A stretch of 64,000 nucleotides of DNA from Escherichia phage EC121. The notes under the pieces were generated by a model, which was not told where the DNA came from, made no database searches, and worked only from the letters and a program-made list of their open reading frames with translations. Below are positions 815-6,554 of the stretch, in pieces; position 1 is the stretch's first letter, and each line of letters opens with the position of its first letter. The DNA is taken from sequence record NC_054909.1. One strand, given 5' to 3'. The position numbers were made by a program, and so were the translations under genes.

Positions 815-1270
815 TTAAAAGAGGTTGTTCATTATTCGGTAAAGTGAAGGACCCATCACATATTGCCACTGAGTGCGAGGAATAAGAGCAAAAGCATCCA
901 TCTCTGGAATCATAACGCCATCTTTATTTTCAAAATAAGACTCGCAATGGCAATTTCTGAACATCTCATGCTCTACTGGAATCGTATAATAAAACAACTG
1001 TAGGTCTTTATTACTAGAATATTTAAATACACCTAGGTCTTCTAGAAGGTCTGGATTATAATTGCTAAAACCGGTCTCTTCTAAGCATTCTCTTCGTGCT
1101 GCATCTAATGCGCTTAAATCAGAATTTTCTACACGGCCCTTTGGAATATCCCAACGATGTGCCATCATTCCAGGCTTACGAGAACCAGTAACCCGACCCA
1201 TAAATAAATCTTTATCTTCTGTCATAAAAATAATACCAGCTGATAATGTTTTCATTTTAATTTCCTGCAT
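815..1270 (-). CDS. nudE: Nudix hydrolase
   Basis: Nudix box ...GRVENSDLSALDAARRECLEETGF (REx2EExGF); ATG at 1270 gives 151 aa; an alternative ATG at 1255 (MKTLSAG...) has the better SD (AGGAAA). Confidence 0.85.
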   Translation of the reverse strand: MQEIKMKTLSAGIIFMTEDKDLFMGRVTGSRKPGMMAHRWDIPKGRVENSDLSALDAARRECLEETGFSNYNPDLLEDLGVFKYSSNKDLQLFYYTIPVEHEMFRNCHCESYFENKDGVMIPEMDAFALIPRTQWQYVMGPSLYRIMNNLF

Positions 1271-1740
1271 TCAGTGATAAAGTTATTTAAATTTTGAGTA
1301 TATTTCTTTTCATCAAAAATCTTTTGCTGCCTACGTAACCGCCATGGCATTTCAATGAACACGCACCATATTCCTGATAGTACTGCTGCTGTAAAAATAT
1401 TAACAAGTATAATTAAAAGAATCCAATCTTCCGTTCTGCCTACTGGACTTTCTCCAAAGAAGCAAAATACAAATGATGTCACAGGAAAACTAATAATATA
1501 CCACAGAATAACCTTCTTATCTGTGAACCAATCAGCGTTCGTTAACTTAGCACGACCATTTTGAATACACACGAATTTATCATCTGTTACAGTAGATGGC
1601 TTAACTGCTTGATATCCCATTCTAAACTCCCTAATTAATCGTTTCTTTGTATCTTCAGAACAGCCGCTCCAGTCAACTCTATCGACTGAAATGCCATCGT
1701 CCCCATCATCTAAATCATACCAGCGAGTTTTTAAAATCAT
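1252..1740 (-). CDS. Small membrane protein (hydrophobic helices), C-terminal ...NNFITECRKLK
   Basis: 162-aa ORF, ATG at 1740; stop overlaps nudE start; member of a 4-ORF tandem array with a shared C-terminal/junction motif. Confidence 0.55.
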   Translation of the reverse strand: MILKTRWYDLDDGDDGISVDRVDWSGCSEDTKKRLIREFRMGYQAVKPSTVTDDKFVCIQNGRAKLTNADWFTDKKVILWYIISFPVTSFVFCFFGESPVGRTEDWILLIILVNIFTAAVLSGIWCVFIEMPWRLRRQQKIFDEKKYTQNLNNFITECRKLK

Positions 1741-2111
1741 TTGATTTTCCTACAATCATTCACGAATTCTTTCATTGATTCATTTTCAATATAAGACATG
1801 TAGTTATTATATTCTTTTAATTGTATTTTGTAATCCTTTTTTCTTTGCCAATTTATTTTAAAATTATCATAATGAAAATATAAAATGATACTAAAGAATG
1901 AAAATAATGAAATTGCTATAGTATAATGAAGTTCACTCCAAACTTCTATTATATCTACTATACCGCTGACGTTACTGCGGATGTTTAAAATAATACAGTC
2001 AATCATTAATCCAATAAGACTACCAGCAAGAGCTGCAGCCAACGCCACAGCAAAAATTAAAAATGACTCAGAAAAAGAATATTTGACTTTATTTAGTTTT
2101 GGCTTTTGCAT
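1737..2111 (-). CDS. Small membrane protein (2 predicted TM helices), C-terminal ...KEFVNDCRKIK
   Basis: 124-aa ORF, ATG at 2111..2109 with SD AAGGAA 5 nt upstream; stop overlaps the next start (ATGA). Confidence 0.6.
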   Translation of the reverse strand: MQKPKLNKVKYSFSESFLIFAVALAAALAGSLIGLMIDCIILNIRSNVSGIVDIIEVWSELHYTIAISLFSFFSIILYFHYDNFKINWQRKKDYKIQLKEYNNYMSYIENESMKEFVNDCRKIK

Positions 2112-2485
2112 CGTGATTCCTTAACAAATTTCATAATTTCATTAAATTCATACATATTTAGTTTAAGCTGGTGTTCCTTTTTAATCTTTTTACACTGAGC
2201 TTTCCATTCGCGTACGCGTTTACGATAATGTCTTCCTTGATACCAGTATCCTACCCAATTTACAGGTACTAATAAAAGTGGAACTATTAATGGAAGAATT
2301 AGCATTAACACAAGTATTTCGCCAGAATCAATATCAGTCATAACATCTAAAACACCTCCAATAATCAATAGAATTACAAATGATATAAGTATAACAGGAC
2401 CTATTAATACATCAGTAGAAATTATCTGACGCTTTAATTCATACTTCAAAGGTTTACTTGGAAGGTATAGTGATGGCTTTGACAT
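2093..2485 (-). CDS. Small membrane protein (2 predicted TM helices), C-terminal ...MKFVKESRCKSQN
   Basis: Track start at 2506 is TTG; first ATG is 2485..2483 (MSKPSLY...), used here; hydrophobic stretches ILISFVILLIIGGVL and LVLMLILPLIVPLLLV. Confidence 0.5.
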   Translation of the reverse strand: MSKPSLYLPSKPLKYELKRQIISTDVLIGPVILISFVILLIIGGVLDVMTDIDSGEILVLMLILPLIVPLLLVPVNWVGYWYQGRHYRKRVREWKAQCKKIKKEHQLKLNMYEFNEIMKFVKESRCKSQN

Positions 2486-3062
2486 ATTCTCTACATTCCT
2501 TAACAAATTTTTCTAGTAATAAATCGCTTTCAAAATTGGGATTTTCCACTAATTTATCAAAAAGATCATCAACAATAGTCAAAATATTCTTTTTACTAAG
2601 AATACGCTTATTTTCATGCTTCGTTTCAGAATCAACTATAAGAGTAAAGAAATATTTCTTTCCCTGAAATTTTACCGTAGTATCAATATAGAATAAATTT
2701 GACTTTTGTAAATTACGTTTAAACCATGCGTCACTTAAACTATAAACACCGAGATAATCAAAATCGTCGTTTAAATAACAAACTGACCATTCAGGAGAAA
2801 TGAAATCAGTAAATTCAACATCAAAATCACATGTCAATGAATAAATTGATTCAATATTGTTAATAAGTATTCCAGGACGTATTAAAGACTTTTTACCTCT
2901 AGAAAATCTTCCAGAAAGACTTTCATCAGTTTCATATGAAGAACCCCAATAATAATTACGTCCTTCTGCCATACGTTTAAGAGCATTTAATAATTGGTCT
3001 GGAACATCAACTTGTCTTTGGAATTCTTCAAACATTGAATTGAAATCACTTTGCATTTTCAT
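2454..3062 (-). CDS. Hypothetical protein, C-terminal ...EKFVKECREYVKAITIPSK
   Basis: 202-aa ORF, ATG at 3062; no hydrophobic segments; 3' end overlaps the next gene start and carries the same junction motif. Confidence 0.6.
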   Translation of the reverse strand: MKMQSDFNSMFEEFQRQVDVPDQLLNALKRMAEGRNYYWGSSYETDESLSGRFSRGKKSLIRPGILINNIESIYSLTCDFDVEFTDFISPEWSVCYLNDDFDYLGVYSLSDAWFKRNLQKSNLFYIDTTVKFQGKKYFFTLIVDSETKHENKRILSKKNILTIVDDLFDKLVENPNFESDLLLEKFVKECREYVKAITIPSK

Positions 3063-3082
3063 TCCTATTTACTCCAAGTAAT

Positions 3083-3098
3083 AGGGGCCGAAGCCCCT
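3083..3098. terminator. GC hairpin AGGGGC-CGAA-GCCCCT between two minus-strand genes
   Basis: Perfect 6-bp stem with CGAA loop, T-run on the plus side; resembles the intergenic hairpins at 41315, 42904 and 56144. Confidence 0.35.
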
Positions 3099-3104
3099 TT
3101 ATCA

Positions 3105-3698
3105 TTATTTCAGAGAATTAATGTATTCCTGAACATCAGCAGAGGTAGTTTCAACCCCAGAAATATTGCCATTAAAGGTTTCAACTCGGGCAAGAGTATC
3201 TTCAATATCAACCTTAGTCAGCGCTGCAATTTCAACTACATCATCAGCAGTACTAATTCCGAGGGCATTCGCGGCGCGAGTTTCACGGATATATTCCAAT
3301 TTAACTGCAAGTTCTTGGCGAGCATCATCTAACTCAACTACTTTCTTGGCGATTTCAATTCGCATTTCAGCATAACCATCAGCTTTAGTAGTCAACTGCT
3401 CAGCTGTTCGACGATATAGTAAACCAAGTTTAGCATGCATTGTTACATCTTGACCTTCCGAAAGAAGCTTGCGAATTTCACGCTCTTTTGATTCGGCCTG
3501 CTTATTCTTTTCGACAATAAGTTCACGAATACGTTTTTCTTCATTAATAGATTTAATAGAAGCAGTTTTTAGATCTTTAATTTTATCAAGTAGTTTTGCT
3601 GCTGCGGCAGTATACTGTTCTTCAACAGATAGATTTTTAGCCATAGCAGAACCAAGTTTAGTGCGAATAAACTCAACAATTTTCTTCAGTGTGTTCAT
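3105..3698 (-). CDS. Hypothetical coiled-coil protein
   Basis: 197-aa ORF, ATG at 3698 with SD AAGGAAA; heptad-rich charged sequence ([27 protein letters not shown]...). Confidence 0.6.
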
Positions 3699-4271: not shown

Positions 4272-4302
4272 TACCAAAAAGCCCCAACCTTTCGGCTGGG
4301 GC
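4272..4302 (-). terminator. Rho-independent terminator (minus strand)
   Basis: rc reads GCCCCAGCC-GAAA-GGTTGGGGC followed by TTTTT; immediately after the stop of the 4311..4784 ORF. Confidence 0.6.
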
Positions 4303-4310
4303 TAAGAATG

Positions 4311-4784
4311 TTATTTGATTTGTTTAGCAGACCAAATGCGGTCTTTAATAATTTTTTGGATGTCTTCAACATACCCAAGAGAGTGAGCATGTGGGTTATC
4401 TTTGAAACTATAAGCACGAGCCAGTTTTTGGCCTTCAGTTTTGATTACTAAAAGCTCTTTAAGAATAGCTTCATATTTGGAGATAATTCCTTTAACAATA
4501 TTTTTCTCTTGTGCGACTTTAGGATCTGCTTTAGGAGCAGGTTTACCTGAAGCCTTTGCAAAAGCAGCGCCAGTAGCAACTAAACTTTTCCAGGCCATAC
4601 TAACTGCATTTCCCGTAAATCCTTCCGCTTTCATGTCGCGTGCGAACTGGAATCGCGATTCATCAGAAGCATCTTTGTAAGAATATTTACCCGCTGCAAT
4701 GGCTGCTTTTGCGACAGCTTGAATTTCGGTGCTAGATGCTTCATTTAACACCGCTTCATTTAAAAATTGAGTATATGATTTCAT
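4311..4784 (-). CDS. Putative capsid-packaged internal protein (N-terminal capsid-targeting-sequence-like MKSYTQFLNE)
   Basis: 157-aa ORF, ATG at 4784 with SD AGGAAA; N-terminus resembles the T-even internal-protein CTS (MKTYQEF...) with an LNE site of the kind cut by the prohead protease; own late promoter and flanking terminators. Confidence 0.6.
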   Translation of the reverse strand: MKSYTQFLNEAVLNEASSTEIQAVAKAAIAAGKYSYKDASDESRFQFARDMKAEGFTGNAVSMAWKSLVATGAAFAKASGKPAPKADPKVAQEKNIVKGIISKYEAILKELLVIKTEGQKLARAYSFKDNPHAHSLGYVEDIQKIIKDRIWSAKQIK

Positions 4785-4834: not shown

Positions 4835-4861
4835 AAAAAGCCCCAACCTTTCAGTCGGGGC
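4835..4861 (-). terminator. Rho-independent terminator (minus strand), near-copy of the 4272..4302 element
   Basis: rc: GCCCCGACT-GAAA-GGTTGGGGC + TTTTT; the 36-bp block ataccaaaaagccccaacctttc.g..ggggctaag occurs at 4271..4306 and 4829..4864. Confidence 0.6.
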
Positions 4862-4865
4862 TAAG

Positions 4866-5538: not shown

Positions 5539-5614
5539 TGGTCGAGGCAGTAGGGATCGAACCTACGACCCAGGACTTAGAAGGTCCTTGCTCTTCCTTC
5601 TGAGCTATGCCCCG
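5539..5614 (-). tRNA. tRNA-Arg (anticodon TCT)
   Basis: Hand-folded cloverleaf, anticodon arm AGGAC-CTTCTAA-GTCCT, T-arm GTAGG-TTCGATC-CCTAC, CCA encoded. Confidence 0.8.
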
Positions 5615-5618
5615 TAAT

Positions 5619-5694
5619 TGGGGTGACCGATGGGAGTCGAACCCATGACTACGAGAATCACAATCTCGAGTTCTACCAACTGAACTACGGCCAC
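5619..5694 (-). tRNA. tRNA-His (anticodon GTG)
   Basis: GTGGCCGTAGTTCAGTTGGTAGAAC-T-CGAGA-TTGTGAT-TCTCG...CCCATCGGTCAC-C-CCA; anticodon loop and C73 as in bacterial tRNA-His; no G at -1. Confidence 0.7.
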
Positions 5695-5808
5695 ATTAAT
5701 ACCTACTCCAACAATCATGATGTCTTCACACGAAATTAAGAGAAGAGTGATCAGTTCAACCCCTATAATCGCGTCAAGTAGATATTAATGTGACAGTTGT
5801 CACAAATT

Positions 5809-5883
5809 TGGCGGACGTGATAGGATTCGAACCTATAACCAATCGCTTAACAGGCGATCGCTCTGCCATTGAGCTACACATCC
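5809..5883 (-). tRNA. tRNA-Asn (anticodon GTT)
   Basis: GGATGTGTAGCTCAATGGCAGAGC-G-ATCGC-CTGTTAA-GCGAT...; acceptor and T stems pair, CCA encoded. Confidence 0.75.
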
Positions 5884-5887
5884 AAAT

Positions 5888-5974
5888 TGGTGGGGAGTGA
5901 TGGAGTCGAACCACCCGAGTCGCAATGACAATGAATTTACAGTCCACACCGCTACCTCTACGGGATAACTCCCC
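5888..5974 (-). tRNA. tRNA-Tyr (anticodon GTA), class II with long variable arm
   Basis: Anticodon arm GTGGA-CTGTAAA-TTCAT (two G-U pairs), variable-arm hairpin GTC-ATTGC-GAC, T-arm GGTGG-TTCGACT-CCATC, acceptor GGGGAGT/ACTCCCC, CCA encoded. Confidence 0.6.
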
Positions 5975-5981
5975 CTTAATT

Positions 5982-6056
5982 TGGTGGCCCTGGGTGGAAT
6001 TGAACCACCATCTGGCGATTATGAGTCGCTTGCTTGAACCTTCCAGCTACAGGGCC
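5982..6056 (-). tRNA. tRNA with CAT anticodon (T4 tRNA-Ile type)
   Basis: GGCCCTG acceptor, anticodon arm AGCGA-CTCATAA-TCGCC, T-arm GGTGG-TTCAATT-CCACC, CCA encoded. Confidence 0.75.
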
Positions 6057-6057
6057 T

Positions 6058-6133
6058 TGGTGCTGATTGACGGAATCGAACCGCCGACATCCTCATTACA
6101 AGTGAGGTGCTCTACCTACTGAGCTAAATCAGC
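6058..6133 (-). tRNA. tRNA-Thr (anticodon TGT)
   Basis: GCTGATTTAGCTCAGTAGGTAGAGC-A-CCTCA-CTTGTAA-TGAGG...TCAATCAGCACCA. Confidence 0.8.
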
Positions 6134-6138
6134 AAAAC

Positions 6139-6228
6139 TGGCGGAGGCGATAGGATTTGAACCTATGAGTCGCCGGAGCGACTGCCGGTTTTCAAGACCG
6201 GTGCATTAAACCACTCTGCCACGCCTCC
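6139..6228 (-). tRNA. tRNA-Ser (anticodon TGA), class II
   Basis: Anticodon arm CCGGT-CTTGAAA-ACCGG, long variable arm, acceptor GGAGGCG/CGCCTCC. Confidence 0.75.
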
Positions 6229-6230
6229 AG

Positions 6231-6304
6231 TCTCCATACAAGGATTTGAACCTACGACATTCTGCTCCCAAAGCAGACGCTCTACCAAACTGAGCTACAC
6301 GGAG
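6231..6304 (-). tRNA. tRNA-Pro (anticodon TGG), CCA not encoded
   Basis: Acceptor CTCCGTG (C1:G72), anticodon arm TCTGC-TTTGGGA-GCAGA; T-stem pairs only 3 bp as I read it; separated from tRNA-Ser by 2 nt. Confidence 0.65.
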
Positions 6305-6314
6305 TAAATTAAAT

Positions 6315-6388
<74 letters not shown>

Positions 6389-6393
6389 AAATT

Positions 6394-6480
6394 TGGTGCG
6401 AGAAGTGGGACTCGAACCCACAAGGAAATAATTCCGCAGCATTTTAAGTGCTGTGCCTTTACCAATTTGACCATTCTCGC
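6394..6480 (-). tRNA. tRNA-Leu (anticodon TAA), class II
   Basis: Acceptor GCGAGAA/TTCTCGC, anticodon arm CAGCA-CTTAAAA-TGCTG, variable-arm hairpin GGAA/TTCC, CCA encoded. Confidence 0.75.
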
Positions 6481-6481
6481 G

Positions 6482-6554
6482 CTGGGAATAAAGGACTCGA
6501 ACCTTTGCATCTAGCAGTCAAAGTGCTATGCCTTACCAACTTGGCTAATTCCCA
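6482..6554 (-). tRNA. tRNA-Gln (anticodon TTG), CCA not encoded
   Basis: Acceptor TGGGAAT/ATTCCCA, anticodon arm TAGCA-CTTTGAC-TGCTA, T-arm AAAGG-TTCGAGT-CCTTT. Confidence 0.75.

Follow-up and report, generated by a model that had tools for sequence, protein, structure and literature searches.

Bacteriophage T4 is the best-studied lytic phage, and about half of its genes, including e.2 to e.8, have no known function. The capsid targeting sequence (CTS, MKTYQEFIAE) of T4 internal proteins is N-terminal on capsid proteins made late, and the prohead protease cleaves it off at [LI]-x-E. Imm and Sp, the superinfection exclusion proteins, are early, small, non-essential proteins of the inner membrane, and lysis of the host is accounted for by t, rI and rIII, which are encoded elsewhere in the genome. 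In the hyperplastic regions of T4-type phages, shuffling of genes by means of PeSLs, intergenic units of a promoter and a stem-loop that are conserved as DNA, has been documented (Arbiol et al. 2010, PMC2839356; Comeau et al. 2014, PMC4122927). The products of T4 e.2, e.3, e.4 and e.5 stand in the databases as four separate families of unknown function (UniProt names Y06M, Y06N, Y06O and Y06P, respectively), and literature searches by gene name found no functional studies of these genes. Here we describe a C-terminal peptide that all four proteins have in common. None of the annotations examined records this shared tail, the paralogy of e.3 and e.4, or how widely the tail is distributed.

The window, that is, the whole 64,000-nucleotide stretch of DNA analysed, comes from a Tequatrovirus, and the region described here is 97.5% identical to Tequatrovirus G29. 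Its four minus-strand ORFs are the T4 genes e.5, e.4, e.3 and e.2 (Table 1), annotated as e.2–e.5 in phage ime09 and in T4, and they are 84–100% identical to their orthologues, with gene order and overlaps alike. PHROG profiles matched each of the four proteins over its full length (E 9e-78 to 5e-109), and the Pfam assignments, which were precomputed on homologues of 84–98% identity, agree with those of PHROG for the e.2–e.5 block. The tandem array of overlapping genes reported in the preliminary description was borne out, with overlaps of 32 nt for e.5/e.4, 19 nt for e.4/e.3 and 4 nt (ATGA) for e.3/e.2; a further 4-nt overlap (ATGA) joins e.2 to nudE, given the nudE start at position 1255 as annotated in phage ime09. 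The synteny e.6–e.5–e.4–e.3–e.2–nudE–e is kept in ime09, T4 GT7 and PhAPEC2. The length of e.4 was counted from the ATG at 2485, as in orthologues (start MSKPSL); the ORF list gave a TTG at 2506. In Kyte–Doolittle windows, e.5 showed no transmembrane (TM) segment and the other three proteins showed two apiece, in agreement with the three two-TM hairpins with a basic juxtamembrane segment that had been noted earlier. In e.2 the hairpin follows a conserved N-terminal soluble domain; the gene is full length here, while T4 itself has a truncated e.2 of 102 aa.

A UUCG-loop hairpin forms the upstream limit of the overlapping e.5–e.4–e.3–e.2–nudE run. Beyond it lies e.6, which is strongly conserved (74% identity to a Gaprivervirus protein). 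In each genus examined, e.6 is the immediate upstream neighbour of the first soluble protein that carries a tail. PDB sequence searches with e.5 and e.6 gave no match, and a resemblance of e.6 to PspA was unsupported by Pfam or by a PDB profile search. No known protein family scored above threshold in Pfam (local copy), NCBIfam or PADLOC, the last of which also gave no match to an anti-phage defence protein. The GenBank product names 'sulfurtransferase', 'phosphoserine phosphatase', 'host specificity protein', 'DNA primase' and 'VirB3' were unsupported in all libraries searched and were set aside as annotation noise.

Table 1. Features of the e.6–e.2 region and related elements in the window.
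Feature	Positions	Strand	Description
CTS-bearing ORF	4311-4784		carries a capsid targeting sequence
e.6	3105-3698	minus	197 aa; phrog_1203; context only, without tail
UUCG-loop hairpin	3083-3098	minus	GC-rich; between e.6 and e.5; annotated terminator in related phages
e.5	2454-3062	minus	202 aa, soluble; PF26876 Phage_T4_Y06P; phrog_2607; ends ...EKFVKECREYVKAITIPSK*; tail helix carries FVKECREYVKA
16-nt exact direct repeat, copy 1	2495-2510	minus	AAATTTGTTAAGGAAT (sense strand), in e.5 tail
e.5 tail codons F-V-K-E-C-R	2490-2507	minus	K-E codons AAGGAA (2496-2501) form an SD-like hexamer upstream of the e.4 ATG (2483-2485)
e.4	2093-2485	minus	130 aa, 2-TM hairpin; PF26873 Phage_T4_Y06O; phrog_2604; ends ...MKFVKESRCKSQN*; tail FVKESRC
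16-nt exact direct repeat, copy 2	2116-2131	minus	AAATTTGTTAAGGAAT, in e.4 tail
e.4 tail codons F-V-K-E-S-R-C	2108-2128	minus	AAGGAA (2117-2122) is the SD of e.3, ATG 2109-2111
e.3	1737-2111	minus	124 aa, 2-TM hairpin; phrog_2330; e.4 paralogue; ends ...KEFVNDCRKIK*
e.3 tail codons F-V-N-D-C-R	1749-1766	minus	R-K codons AGGAAA (1746-1751) are the SD of e.2; stop/start ATGA 1737-1740
e.2	1252-1740	minus	162 aa; PF26896 Phage_T4_Y06M; phrog_2203; ends ...NNFITECRKLK*
e.2 tail codons F-I-T-E-C-R	1264-1281	minus	R-K codons AGGAAA (1261-1266) are the SD of nudE; stop/start ATGA 1252-1255

All four proteins have a common ending, Φ-x-x-F-[IV]-x-[ED]-[C/S]-R followed by basic residues. The C-terminal sequences listed in the preliminary description were accurate for all four ORFs, except that seven more residues follow the string quoted for e.5. 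A census of the motif covered ~169 kb, made up of the window and the remainder of the closest genome, with 355 six-frame ORFs of at least 60 aa. The strict form, F[IVL]xxCR, occurred three times genome-wide, each time in a tail (the last 22 residues), namely those of e.2, e.3 and e.5, compared with 0.038 such tails expected from composition; the tail motif exceeds chance. The e.4 protein carries a variant, FVKESRC. Loss of the motif from orthologues had been considered at the outset, but the tails are retained at 21–35% overall identity: e.2 of Dhakavirus NC-G ends in NSFIEECRK, e.3 of Mosigvirus in ENFIKECRK and the e.3-like protein of Gaprivervirus in ETFIKECKS. In an alignment of e.2, 8 of 14 columns were invariant at the C-terminal end, as against 31 of 191 elsewhere (Fisher p = 0.001). 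Judged by this pattern of conservation, the tail module is under selection at the protein level. No single residue chemistry holds for every tail: members of the e.4 lineage all have S, I or V in place of the Cys, which weakens the case for a chemistry based on Cys (metal or covalent), and in one e.3 lineage Lys takes the place of the Arg.

Treated at first as a feature of this array, where it is indeed present, the tail proved to be far more widespread and to occur on soluble proteins as well. It was found in at least six genera of T4 relatives (Tequatrovirus, Mosigvirus, Dhakavirus, Gaprivervirus, Jiaodavirus and Karamvirus), and the module predates the split of these Tevenvirinae. Its carriers comprise hairpin proteins (e.4, e.3, ORF133c and the hairpin half of e.2), soluble proteins of the e.5 type and several small soluble proteins, and in all of these genera they are encoded in the e/nudE–tRNA hyperplastic region. 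Three ORFs are tagged in Jiaodavirus Merci and six in Karamvirus VIPECLOM01, four of the latter being tandem hairpin genes with ATGA overlaps; the number of tagged hairpins is one in Jiaodavirus, three here and four in tandem in Karamvirus. When 1.84 billion representative proteins were searched exhaustively with a profile, only eight matched, all from T-even phages. A pattern scan of IMG/VR gave 12 real matches, again all T-even, with 13 further short ORFs fitting chance, and a search for related loci with the e.3 alignment found only five in IMG/VR.

The preliminary description had proposed serial duplication of one cassette, and for e.3 and e.4 this was upheld. HHalign comparison of three-genus profiles gave a probability of 87% (E 4e-6 over 58 columns), the e.3/e.4-like pair of Gaprivervirus matched in blastp (E 5e-6 over 84 aa), and e.3 weakly matched the e.4 PHROG family (E 0.006). 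These alignments show e.3 and e.4, at the level of sequence, to be true paralogues that arose by tandem duplication. The proposal did not extend to e.2 and e.5, which are not detectable duplicates. The similarity of e.2 and of RB69 ORF133c to e.3 is confined to the 18-aa tail (E 2e-5), and what these two have in common with e.3 and e.4 is the hairpin layout and the tail. Matches of e.5 to members of the array are limited to ~10 aa, the tail being all that they share, and its match to e.5-like proteins is also restricted to the tail (E 6e-5).

At the nucleotide level, an exact 16-nt direct repeat lies in the tails of e.5 and e.4 (Table 1); any exact 16-mer repeat was present in only 5 of 2000 shuffles of the region. 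Homology beyond the repeat reaches the start of the next gene (ATGTCAAAGCCATCACTA versus ATGCAAAAGCCAAAACTA; MSKPSL versus MQKPKL), and DNA homology between the junction of e.5 with e.4 and that of e.4 with e.3 extends through the first codons of the downstream gene. We also found a natural chimera, P0123, in which residues 1–31 of e.4 are fused in frame to residues 87–162 of e.2 at a TCCTGT microhomology. The array changes by recombination. It might be supposed that this is what the junctions are chiefly for, as coding counterparts of PeSL cassettes that mainly promote unequal crossing-over and cassette shuffling. The 16-nt identity of two junctions 379 bp apart does suggest gene conversion within Tequatrovirus, the copy number of tagged hairpins varies among genera, and shuffling by PeSLs is known from such regions. 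We nevertheless consider a recombination linker very unlikely. Between genera only the peptide is conserved, not the nucleotides; folding and terminator/promoter calls found no stem-loop, promoter or terminator at the junctions; and the sole natural rearrangement found, P0123, was joined in TM1 at the 6-nt microhomology and not in the tail.

Each junction of the window encodes both a tail and the Shine–Dalgarno (SD) sequence of the next gene, AAGGAA or AGGAAA in the tail codons, as had been noticed from the start. The tail could therefore be regarded as the upstream-frame translation of a duplicated initiation region (SD, spacer and start) that was spread by tandem duplication, in which case the peptide would be inert. 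Such an origin would explain why an SD is present in every tail of the window, why the homology of the e.5/e.4 and e.4/e.3 junctions takes in the repeat and the next gene's first six codons, and why AAG for Lys and AGG for Arg, both rare, occur precisely where they spell the SD. The residues, however, stay constant while the codons and the SD register vary. Every conserved residue differs in codon among members (F, TTT/TTC; C, TGT/TGC; R, AGG/AGA/CGT/CGA), and the SD may be spelled by the x-E codons, the R-K codons or R-G-K, or lie after the motif or ~20 nt downstream, so that it occupies at least four different registers or a place outside the motif. The motif of the Gaprivervirus e.5-like protein holds no SD, with AAAGGGG ~20 nt downstream, and in the Jiaodavirus e.5-like protein the SD is placed after the motif. 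Furthermore, one tagged ORF of Karamvirus (1711-2064) is followed by an intergenic gap, and the genome's other close-packed genes with a downstream SD in their last codons are all without the motif. The SD sits in whichever tail codons spell it (AAG-GAA, GAG-GAA, AGG-AAA or CGA-GGA-AAA); it was the ribosome-binding site that became adapted to the peptide, not the reverse. Contrary to a possibility allowed for in the preliminary description, the similarity of the tails is not limited to codons constrained by the SD, given the varying SD register and Arg codons. We conclude from these comparisons that the motif is not a by-product of the SD sequence, an inert peptide of that origin being quite unlikely, with the qualification that each tail overlaps or abuts the downstream initiation region and comparison alone cannot fully part a translational from a protein role.

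The e.5–e.2 block appears to be set up for translational coupling. As in translationally coupled overlapping genes, all members are on the same strand, each stop codon overlaps the next start or the start lies inside the upstream ORF, and the SD is contained in the upstream coding sequence. Folding z-scores of the junction RNAs (+0.79, +2.38, +0.70 and -0.52) indicated no structure, which fits open initiation regions; on these scores, and with no Rfam match to an RNA family at E <= 1, an RNA element at the junctions was rejected. A tail acting in cis as a nascent peptide was also considered. By slowing termination or elongation at the junction, it would tune re-initiation at the overlapping start, and the tail is conserved, always within 0–27 nt of the next start codon, and present on proteins of unrelated architecture. 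We give this explanation very little credence: the tail is unlike any known arrest peptide, it lies anywhere from 1 to 17 codons before the stop codon, and a ribosome paused over the start codon would hinder initiation there.

From hydropathy and the positive-inside rule, the hairpins of e.2, e.3 and e.4 are predicted to lie in the inner membrane with both termini cytoplasmic (N-in/C-in). The AlphaFold2 model of e.5 was mediocre (pLDDT 64.5), with residues 180–196 as the last helix, and that of e.2 was poor and unusable (pLDDT 50). A fold search with the e.5 model in BFVD found only uncharacterised proteins of other T4-like phages (TM ~0.45). On helical wheels, the Φ at position -3, the F and the C fall on one face in nearly all of 17 tails. 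The hydrophobic moment of the tails is moderate (0.27–0.56), with an apolar face of only 3–4 residues.

In published T4 omics data (PMC9697503, supplementary files 4 and 6), both the RNA and the protein of e.4 and e.5 are classed as early; for e.3 the RNA is early and the protein late. Knock-down in a CRISPRi-ART screen of T4 produced no phenotype, e.2–e.5 all being scored 'Not Fit' (PMC11879866, supplementary file 15). The table gives this score to the essential lysozyme gene e as well, which limits the weight of the result. The e.5–e.4–e.3–e.2 block is a set of early, non-essential accessory genes that runs without gaps into nudE. Early expression and dispensability point to an accessory role at the host interface (envelope, exclusion or counter-defence) rather than in lysis. 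Lysis timing, which the preliminary description had mentioned, would make the hairpins holin- or antiholin-like proteins tied to the adjacent endolysin gene e, upstream of which they lie, and their architecture resembles that of class II holins (small, two TMs, charged C-terminus). The early expression of e.4 and e.5 and the early RNA of e.3 argue against it, and the same tail is found on soluble e.5. No holin family was matched in Pfam, PHROGs or NCBIfam, laboratory T4 has its truncated e.2 and no known lysis defect, and t, rI and rIII already explain T4 lysis. A role in lysis timing is highly improbable.

The tail is most likely a portable cytoplasmic helix on translationally coupled accessory proteins, an amphipathic element serving for docking or lying at the membrane surface. 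Accordingly worded for the whole locus, with moderate confidence, the early accessory block would consist of soluble e.5 and three membrane hairpins that have one protein-selected amphipathic tail in common as a portable cytoplasmic docking element. We infer the docking role from two observations, the conservation of the tail and its helical geometry. The docking face would be formed by L, M or I at position -3, F, I or V, and C on one side of the helix, with Arg and Lys alongside, and the tail would bring the e.2–e.5 proteins to one common site. The site could be the membrane's inner face, a partner that all of them bind, or the proteins themselves; in the last case they might form a membrane-anchored hetero-oligomer whose proportions would be fixed by coupled translation.

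A bolder proposal, which we regard as rather doubtful, is that the tail is a Tevenvirinae-specific portable C-terminal address label, an early-gene, cytoplasmic-membrane counterpart of the N-terminal CTS, which would recruit to a common platform any protein that gains it by recombination in the e/nudE–tRNA hyperplastic region. This platform could be the e.6 protein, which is always adjacent and far better conserved, or an inner-membrane machine of the host, and phages could exchange the effector domains attached to an unchanging docking site. Whatever its role, a single C-terminal peptide connects four families that the databases list without a function, and with them ORFs from five further genera. 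As a short sequence the tail offers an experimental handle that could reveal a shared partner or site of early accessory proteins. The junctions are a clean natural example of ribosome-binding sites fitted inside a constrained coding sequence in several registers, and the array one of a hyperplastic region that expands and contracts as small membrane-protein cassettes are duplicated or fused in frame. Should the tail turn out to be just a structural end-cap in a small family of paralogues, the result would be a routine refinement of annotation.

Compared with known systems, the tail resembles PeSLs in being a short conserved sequence that recurs at the borders of small variable genes whose number differs among relatives. 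Unlike PeSLs, it lies in coding sequence, lacks both promoter and stem-loop, and is conserved as a peptide, not as DNA. Like the CTS of T4, it is a short terminal amphipathic peptide common to otherwise unrelated proteins of one region, and the core Φ-x-x-F-I-x-E is similar; in contrast to the CTS, it is C-terminal and carried by early proteins, most of them membrane proteins. Homology of the two was dropped, since the general pattern common to both occurs 29 times in the proteome and the resemblance is not significant. The membrane-targeting helices of MinD and FtsA are also C-terminal and helical, with an apolar face flanked by Lys and Arg, and the tail, a predicted cytoplasmic helix, would be like them in these respects. 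It differs in that its apolar face is short, that membrane binding does not account for its conserved Glu/Asp and Arg, and that most of its carriers are already anchored in the membrane. Sequence similarity of e.2–e.4 to Imm or Sp was found in none of the libraries searched; what they have in common with these T4 proteins is that they are early, small, non-essential and predicted to reside in the inner membrane.

Nucleotide searches with window positions 1000-3400 identified Escherichia phage vB_EcoM_G29 as the closest relative (97.5% identity), and approximately 500 Tequatrovirus records matched at 90-99%. Annotation of the same ORFs in ime09 and T4 gives their order of transcription, on the minus strand, as e.6, e.5, e.4, e.3, e.2, nudE and e. 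The Pfam families on close homologues (see table) are recent entries that carry a name only, with function unknown. For e.4 we used the ATG start of its orthologues, in place of the upstream TTG in the ORF listing. The tandem, overlapping arrangement in the preliminary description was borne out, with overlaps of 32 nt (e.5/e.4), 19 nt (e.4/e.3) and 4 nt (e.3/e.2, and also e.2/nudE). Its count of three two-TM proteins also held, hydropathy analysis revealing two TM segments in each of e.2, e.3 and e.4 and none in e.5. Basic residues precede TM1 and follow TM2 in these three hairpin proteins, and by the positive-inside rule both termini are predicted to be cytoplasmic.

Two start codons in this region deserve comment. 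The nudE start is ambiguous between two in-frame ATGs: that at 1255, annotated in ime09, has an AGGAAA Shine-Dalgarno (SD) sequence 5 nt upstream and an ATGA overlap with the e.2 stop codon, while that at 1270, the start annotated in T4, lacks an SD. In PhAPEC2, e.4 has an annotated start (MPIKPW) that probably lies 21 nt downstream of the true one; translation from the upstream ATG, set in GAATATG as in the window, begins MSKPTLYMPIKPW, in agreement with the Tequatrovirus N-terminus and with protein P0063.

Coordinates of the features discussed (window positions unless a relative's locus, L, is named)
Feature	Position	Strand	Description
e.6	3105-3698	minus	197 aa, largely helical by composition; orthologues L003 (PhAPEC2):1413-2006, L039:6574-7167, L042:1516-2109
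e.5	2454-3062	minus	202 aa; PHROG 2607, full-length match; PF26876 (Phage_T4_Y06P) on close homologues
e.4	2093-2485	minus	130 aa; PHROG 2604, full-length match; PF26873 (Y06O) on close homologues
e.3	1737-2111	minus	124 aa; PHROG 2330, full-length match
e.2	1252-1740	minus	162 aa, intact; PHROG 2203, full-length match; PF26896 (Y06M) on close homologues
nudE	815-1270	minus	two in-frame ATGs
UUCG-tetraloop hairpin	3083-3098		AGGGGCUUCGGCCCCU; separates e.6 and e.5
Terminator hairpins	4280-4303; 4839-4862	minus	near-identical, GC-rich
ORF between terminators	4311-4784		157 aa; N-terminus MKSYTQFLNE
tRNA cluster	5539-6554	minus	11 genes
PhAPEC2 e.4	L003:2627-3022		annotated start at 2648
T4 GT7 e.2	L002:2860-3340		truncated, 102 aa
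P0123	L014:3001-3321		106 aa; phage OP555981.1; present in UFV05/UFV11-type genomes
G-x-W family	L003:3357-4151; L040:1131-1657; L036; L019	reverse (L036, L019)	L036 and L019 copies directly downstream of e.3-like gene

The C-termini of the four proteins read as first quoted, except that e.5 does not end at KFVKECREYVK but continues for seven more residues. A census of six-frame ORFs in the window and the remaining 105 kb of the G29 genome found the strict motif F[IVL]xxCR three times, always within 22 residues of the C-terminus, in e.2, e.3 and e.5, where 0.038 such tails would be expected; e.4 carries a variant, FVKESRC. The peptide motif is therefore far beyond chance. The e.5 and e.4 tails also have one exact 16-nt repeat in common, and an exact 16-mer repeat of any kind arose in just 5 of 2000 shuffles of the region. 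These data confirm and extend the original observation of a tail motif.

The proposed dual use of the junctions, in which tail codons also supply the SD of the next gene, was upheld: SD-like hexamers lie inside the tail codons (AAGGAA twice, AGGAAA twice). An unlikely alternative is that the tail is purely a shadow of the ribosome-binding site, its residues dictated by the SD. Five lines of evidence argue against an SD-driven motif. First, divergent orthologues did not lack the motif but kept the peptide. Dhakavirus NC-G e.2 (31-35% identical) ends NSFIEECRK, e.2 of a further lineage NDFIEECRK, Mosigvirus e.3 (36% identical) ENFIKECRK and Mosigvirus e.5 (47% identical) EQFIMECREYVKA..., while the Gaprivervirus e.3-like and e.4-like tails are ETFIKECKS and EEFIKEVRNGTA. 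Second, 8 of 14 columns at the C-terminal end of the e.2 alignment are invariant, compared with 31 of 191 elsewhere (Fisher p = 0.001). Third, codons vary at every conserved position, Arg being AGG, AGA, CGT or CGA. Fourth, the SD changes register: it falls in the x-E codons (AAG-GAA, GAG-GAA, AAG-GAG-G), in R-K (AGG-AAA) or in R-G-K (CGA-GGA-AAA), comes after the motif in Jiaodavirus (GAG-AGG), and in the e.5-like gene of Gaprivervirus lies outside the motif, approximately 20 nt downstream. Fifth, the motif is absent from the genome's other closely packed genes, though the last codons of each hold a downstream SD. A peptide kept while codons and SD register change is at odds with a pure shadow, and these comparisons argue that the tail motif is not one. 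The SD does leave a smaller imprint, the ribosome-binding site having accommodated itself to a peptide under constraint: where the SD occupies the free position x, that residue is Lys (AAG) or Glu (GAG), and an SD in R-K spells Arg with the rare AGG codon. Because the e.5 tail extension (GAATGTAGAGAATATGTCAAAGCC) also encodes the e.4 start, MSKP, dual coding accounts for its 24-nt identity between Tequatrovirus and Mosigvirus.

With a profile of the hairpin family, an exhaustive HMM search across 1.84 billion representative proteins returned eight proteins only, all from T-even phages. A DNA pattern scan of IMG/VR for FIxECRK-stop gave 25 hits; 12 were real ORFs, each an e.2 or e.3 on a T-even contig, and 13 were very short ORFs, the number predicted by chance. 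Walking the region upstream of nudE in other genera showed the tail to be widespread within Tevenvirinae; in Slopekvirus Miro, outside the subfamily, no tail was found in 14 kb. Next after e.6 in Jiaodavirus Merci come a soluble protein of 196 aa with the C-terminus EFIKYCRERVQK and then an e.4 orthologue ending EFIKEVRRK; a 102-aa protein has the end MFIAKCRAK. Karamvirus VIPECLOM01 has a soluble protein of 221 aa (...DFINYCRGQ...) after e.6, as well as a further soluble protein of 117 aa (...NFIRICRKNQ...) and four tandem hairpins with ATGA overlaps, whose tails are SFIDDCRRARK, EFITECRGKK, NFISKCRTKR and NFIQGIRGER. Between genera, e.5-type proteins barely align beyond the tail, or not at all. 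A BFVD fold search with the e.5 model matched uncharacterised proteins of Klebsiella and Erwinia T4-like phages (TM ~0.45), so e.5-type proteins may be one fast-evolving family.

A second tandem family, of small soluble proteins with the conserved C-terminal end G-x-W-[VLY]-[SNT]-S-S-x-x-C, adjoins the e.3-type gene directly downstream in other genera, with none in the window. Members include RB69 (Mosigvirus) ORF139c, 137c and 136c, five copies in Gaprivervirus/Dhakavirus contigs and two in Karamvirus.

The preliminary description also proposed serial duplication of one cassette, which is supported for e.3 and e.4 only. Single-sequence BLAST revealed almost no similarity among the four proteins. 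With profiles from three genera for e.2, e.3, e.4, e.5 and ORF133c, an unlinked tagged hairpin of Mosigvirus, e.3 and e.4 aligned over 58 columns, TM2 through tail (probability 87%, E 4e-6); the two proteins resemble each other at the N-terminus too (MQKPKL and MSKPSL), e.3 weakly matches the e.4 PHROG family, and the Gaprivervirus e.3-like and e.4-like proteins match directly by blastp (E 5e-6, 84 aa). Both e.2 and ORF133c align with e.3 over the 18-residue tail only (E 2e-5), and e.5 aligns with other profiles over only about 10 residues (E 0.002-0.07). From these graded matches, e.3 and e.4 are a duplicated pair, e.2 and ORF133c share the hairpin-plus-tail layout, and e.5 shares the tail only.

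The e.5/e.4 and e.4/e.3 junctions are homologous in DNA as far as codon six of the following gene, the trace expected of a tandem duplication with the two tails as its boundaries. The perfect 16-mer is confined to Tequatrovirus and absent in Mosigvirus, suggesting later gene conversion between the e.5 and e.4 tails. The array has also contracted: in P0123, residues 1-31 of e.4 are fused in frame to residues 87-162 of e.2 at a TCCTGT microhomology, with e.3 deleted, and this natural chimera carries the e.4 N-terminus with the TM1-TM2 and tail of e.2. The e.2 of laboratory T4 has lost both TM2 and tail, but the remainder of the gene, including ...NNFITECRK, is recognisable downstream in another frame. 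That the tail is a recombination linker is an unlikely alternative, at odds with specific observations.

The AF2 model of e.5 (pLDDT 64.5 overall) places the tail within a terminal helix (residues 180-196), and a low-confidence e.2 model has a single helix from TM2 through the C-terminus. On helical wheels of 17 tails, the -3 residue (L/M/I), Phe and Cys share a face in nearly all, with Arg/Lys alongside and after (moment 0.27-0.56). Ser, Ile or Val replaces Cys throughout the e.4 lineage, making cysteine-specific chemistry unlikely as the common denominator. The tagged proteins, whose genes overlap tightly, are linked by a portable C-terminal amphipathic helix conserved at the protein level. 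On the best-supported reading, this tail would act as a docking element, gathering the proteins together or to a common partner or membrane surface. A cis-acting nascent peptide is an unlikely alternative, again at odds with specific observations.

In T4 dual-omics data (PMC9697503, supplementary files 4 and 6), e.4 and e.5 are early as RNA and protein, and e.3 is early as RNA and late as protein, so these are real products. Early expression and the absence of a holin signature argue against the lysis-timing role raised earlier. A CRISPRi-ART screen scored e.2-e.6 as 'Not Fit', with prior essentiality unknown, a weak negative since the lysozyme gene e was likewise 'Not Fit' (PMC11879866, supplementary file 15). 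Literature searches found no functional studies of e.2-e.6.

The gene immediately before the first tagged soluble protein was e.6 in every genus checked. Its product is conserved well above the tagged proteins (74% identical in Tequatrovirus and Gaprivervirus, 61-88% across four genera) and had no match in Pfam, NCBIfam or PDB sequences. GenBank product names on e.3, e.4, e.5 and e.6 orthologues (sulfurtransferase, phosphoserine phosphatase, host specificity protein, DNA primase, VirB3, ubiquitinyl hydrolase) were supported by no profile library searched. Annotations of G29 and PhAPEC2 label the UUCG hairpin a terminator, yet it lacks a strong U-run after it. Farther upstream, the two terminator hairpins (consensus TTAGCCCCrrCyGAAAGGTTGGGGCTTTTTGGTAT) flank an ORF whose N-terminus resembles a capsid targeting sequence, and may mark PeSL-like cassette boundaries. 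The tRNA cluster encodes Arg, His, Asn, Tyr, Met, Thr, Ser, Pro, Gly, Leu and Gln tRNAs; T4 has 8 tRNA genes.

The tagged proteins make up a small set of early accessory proteins restricted to T-even phages, mostly inner-membrane hairpins together with e.5-type cytoplasmic proteins. Hypothetical ORFs e.2-e.5 have long been known, but the tail that unifies them, and how it is distributed, appear unrecorded in the annotations and papers found. The tail is not a new kind of system, but offers experiments a useful way into T4 genes whose function is unknown.
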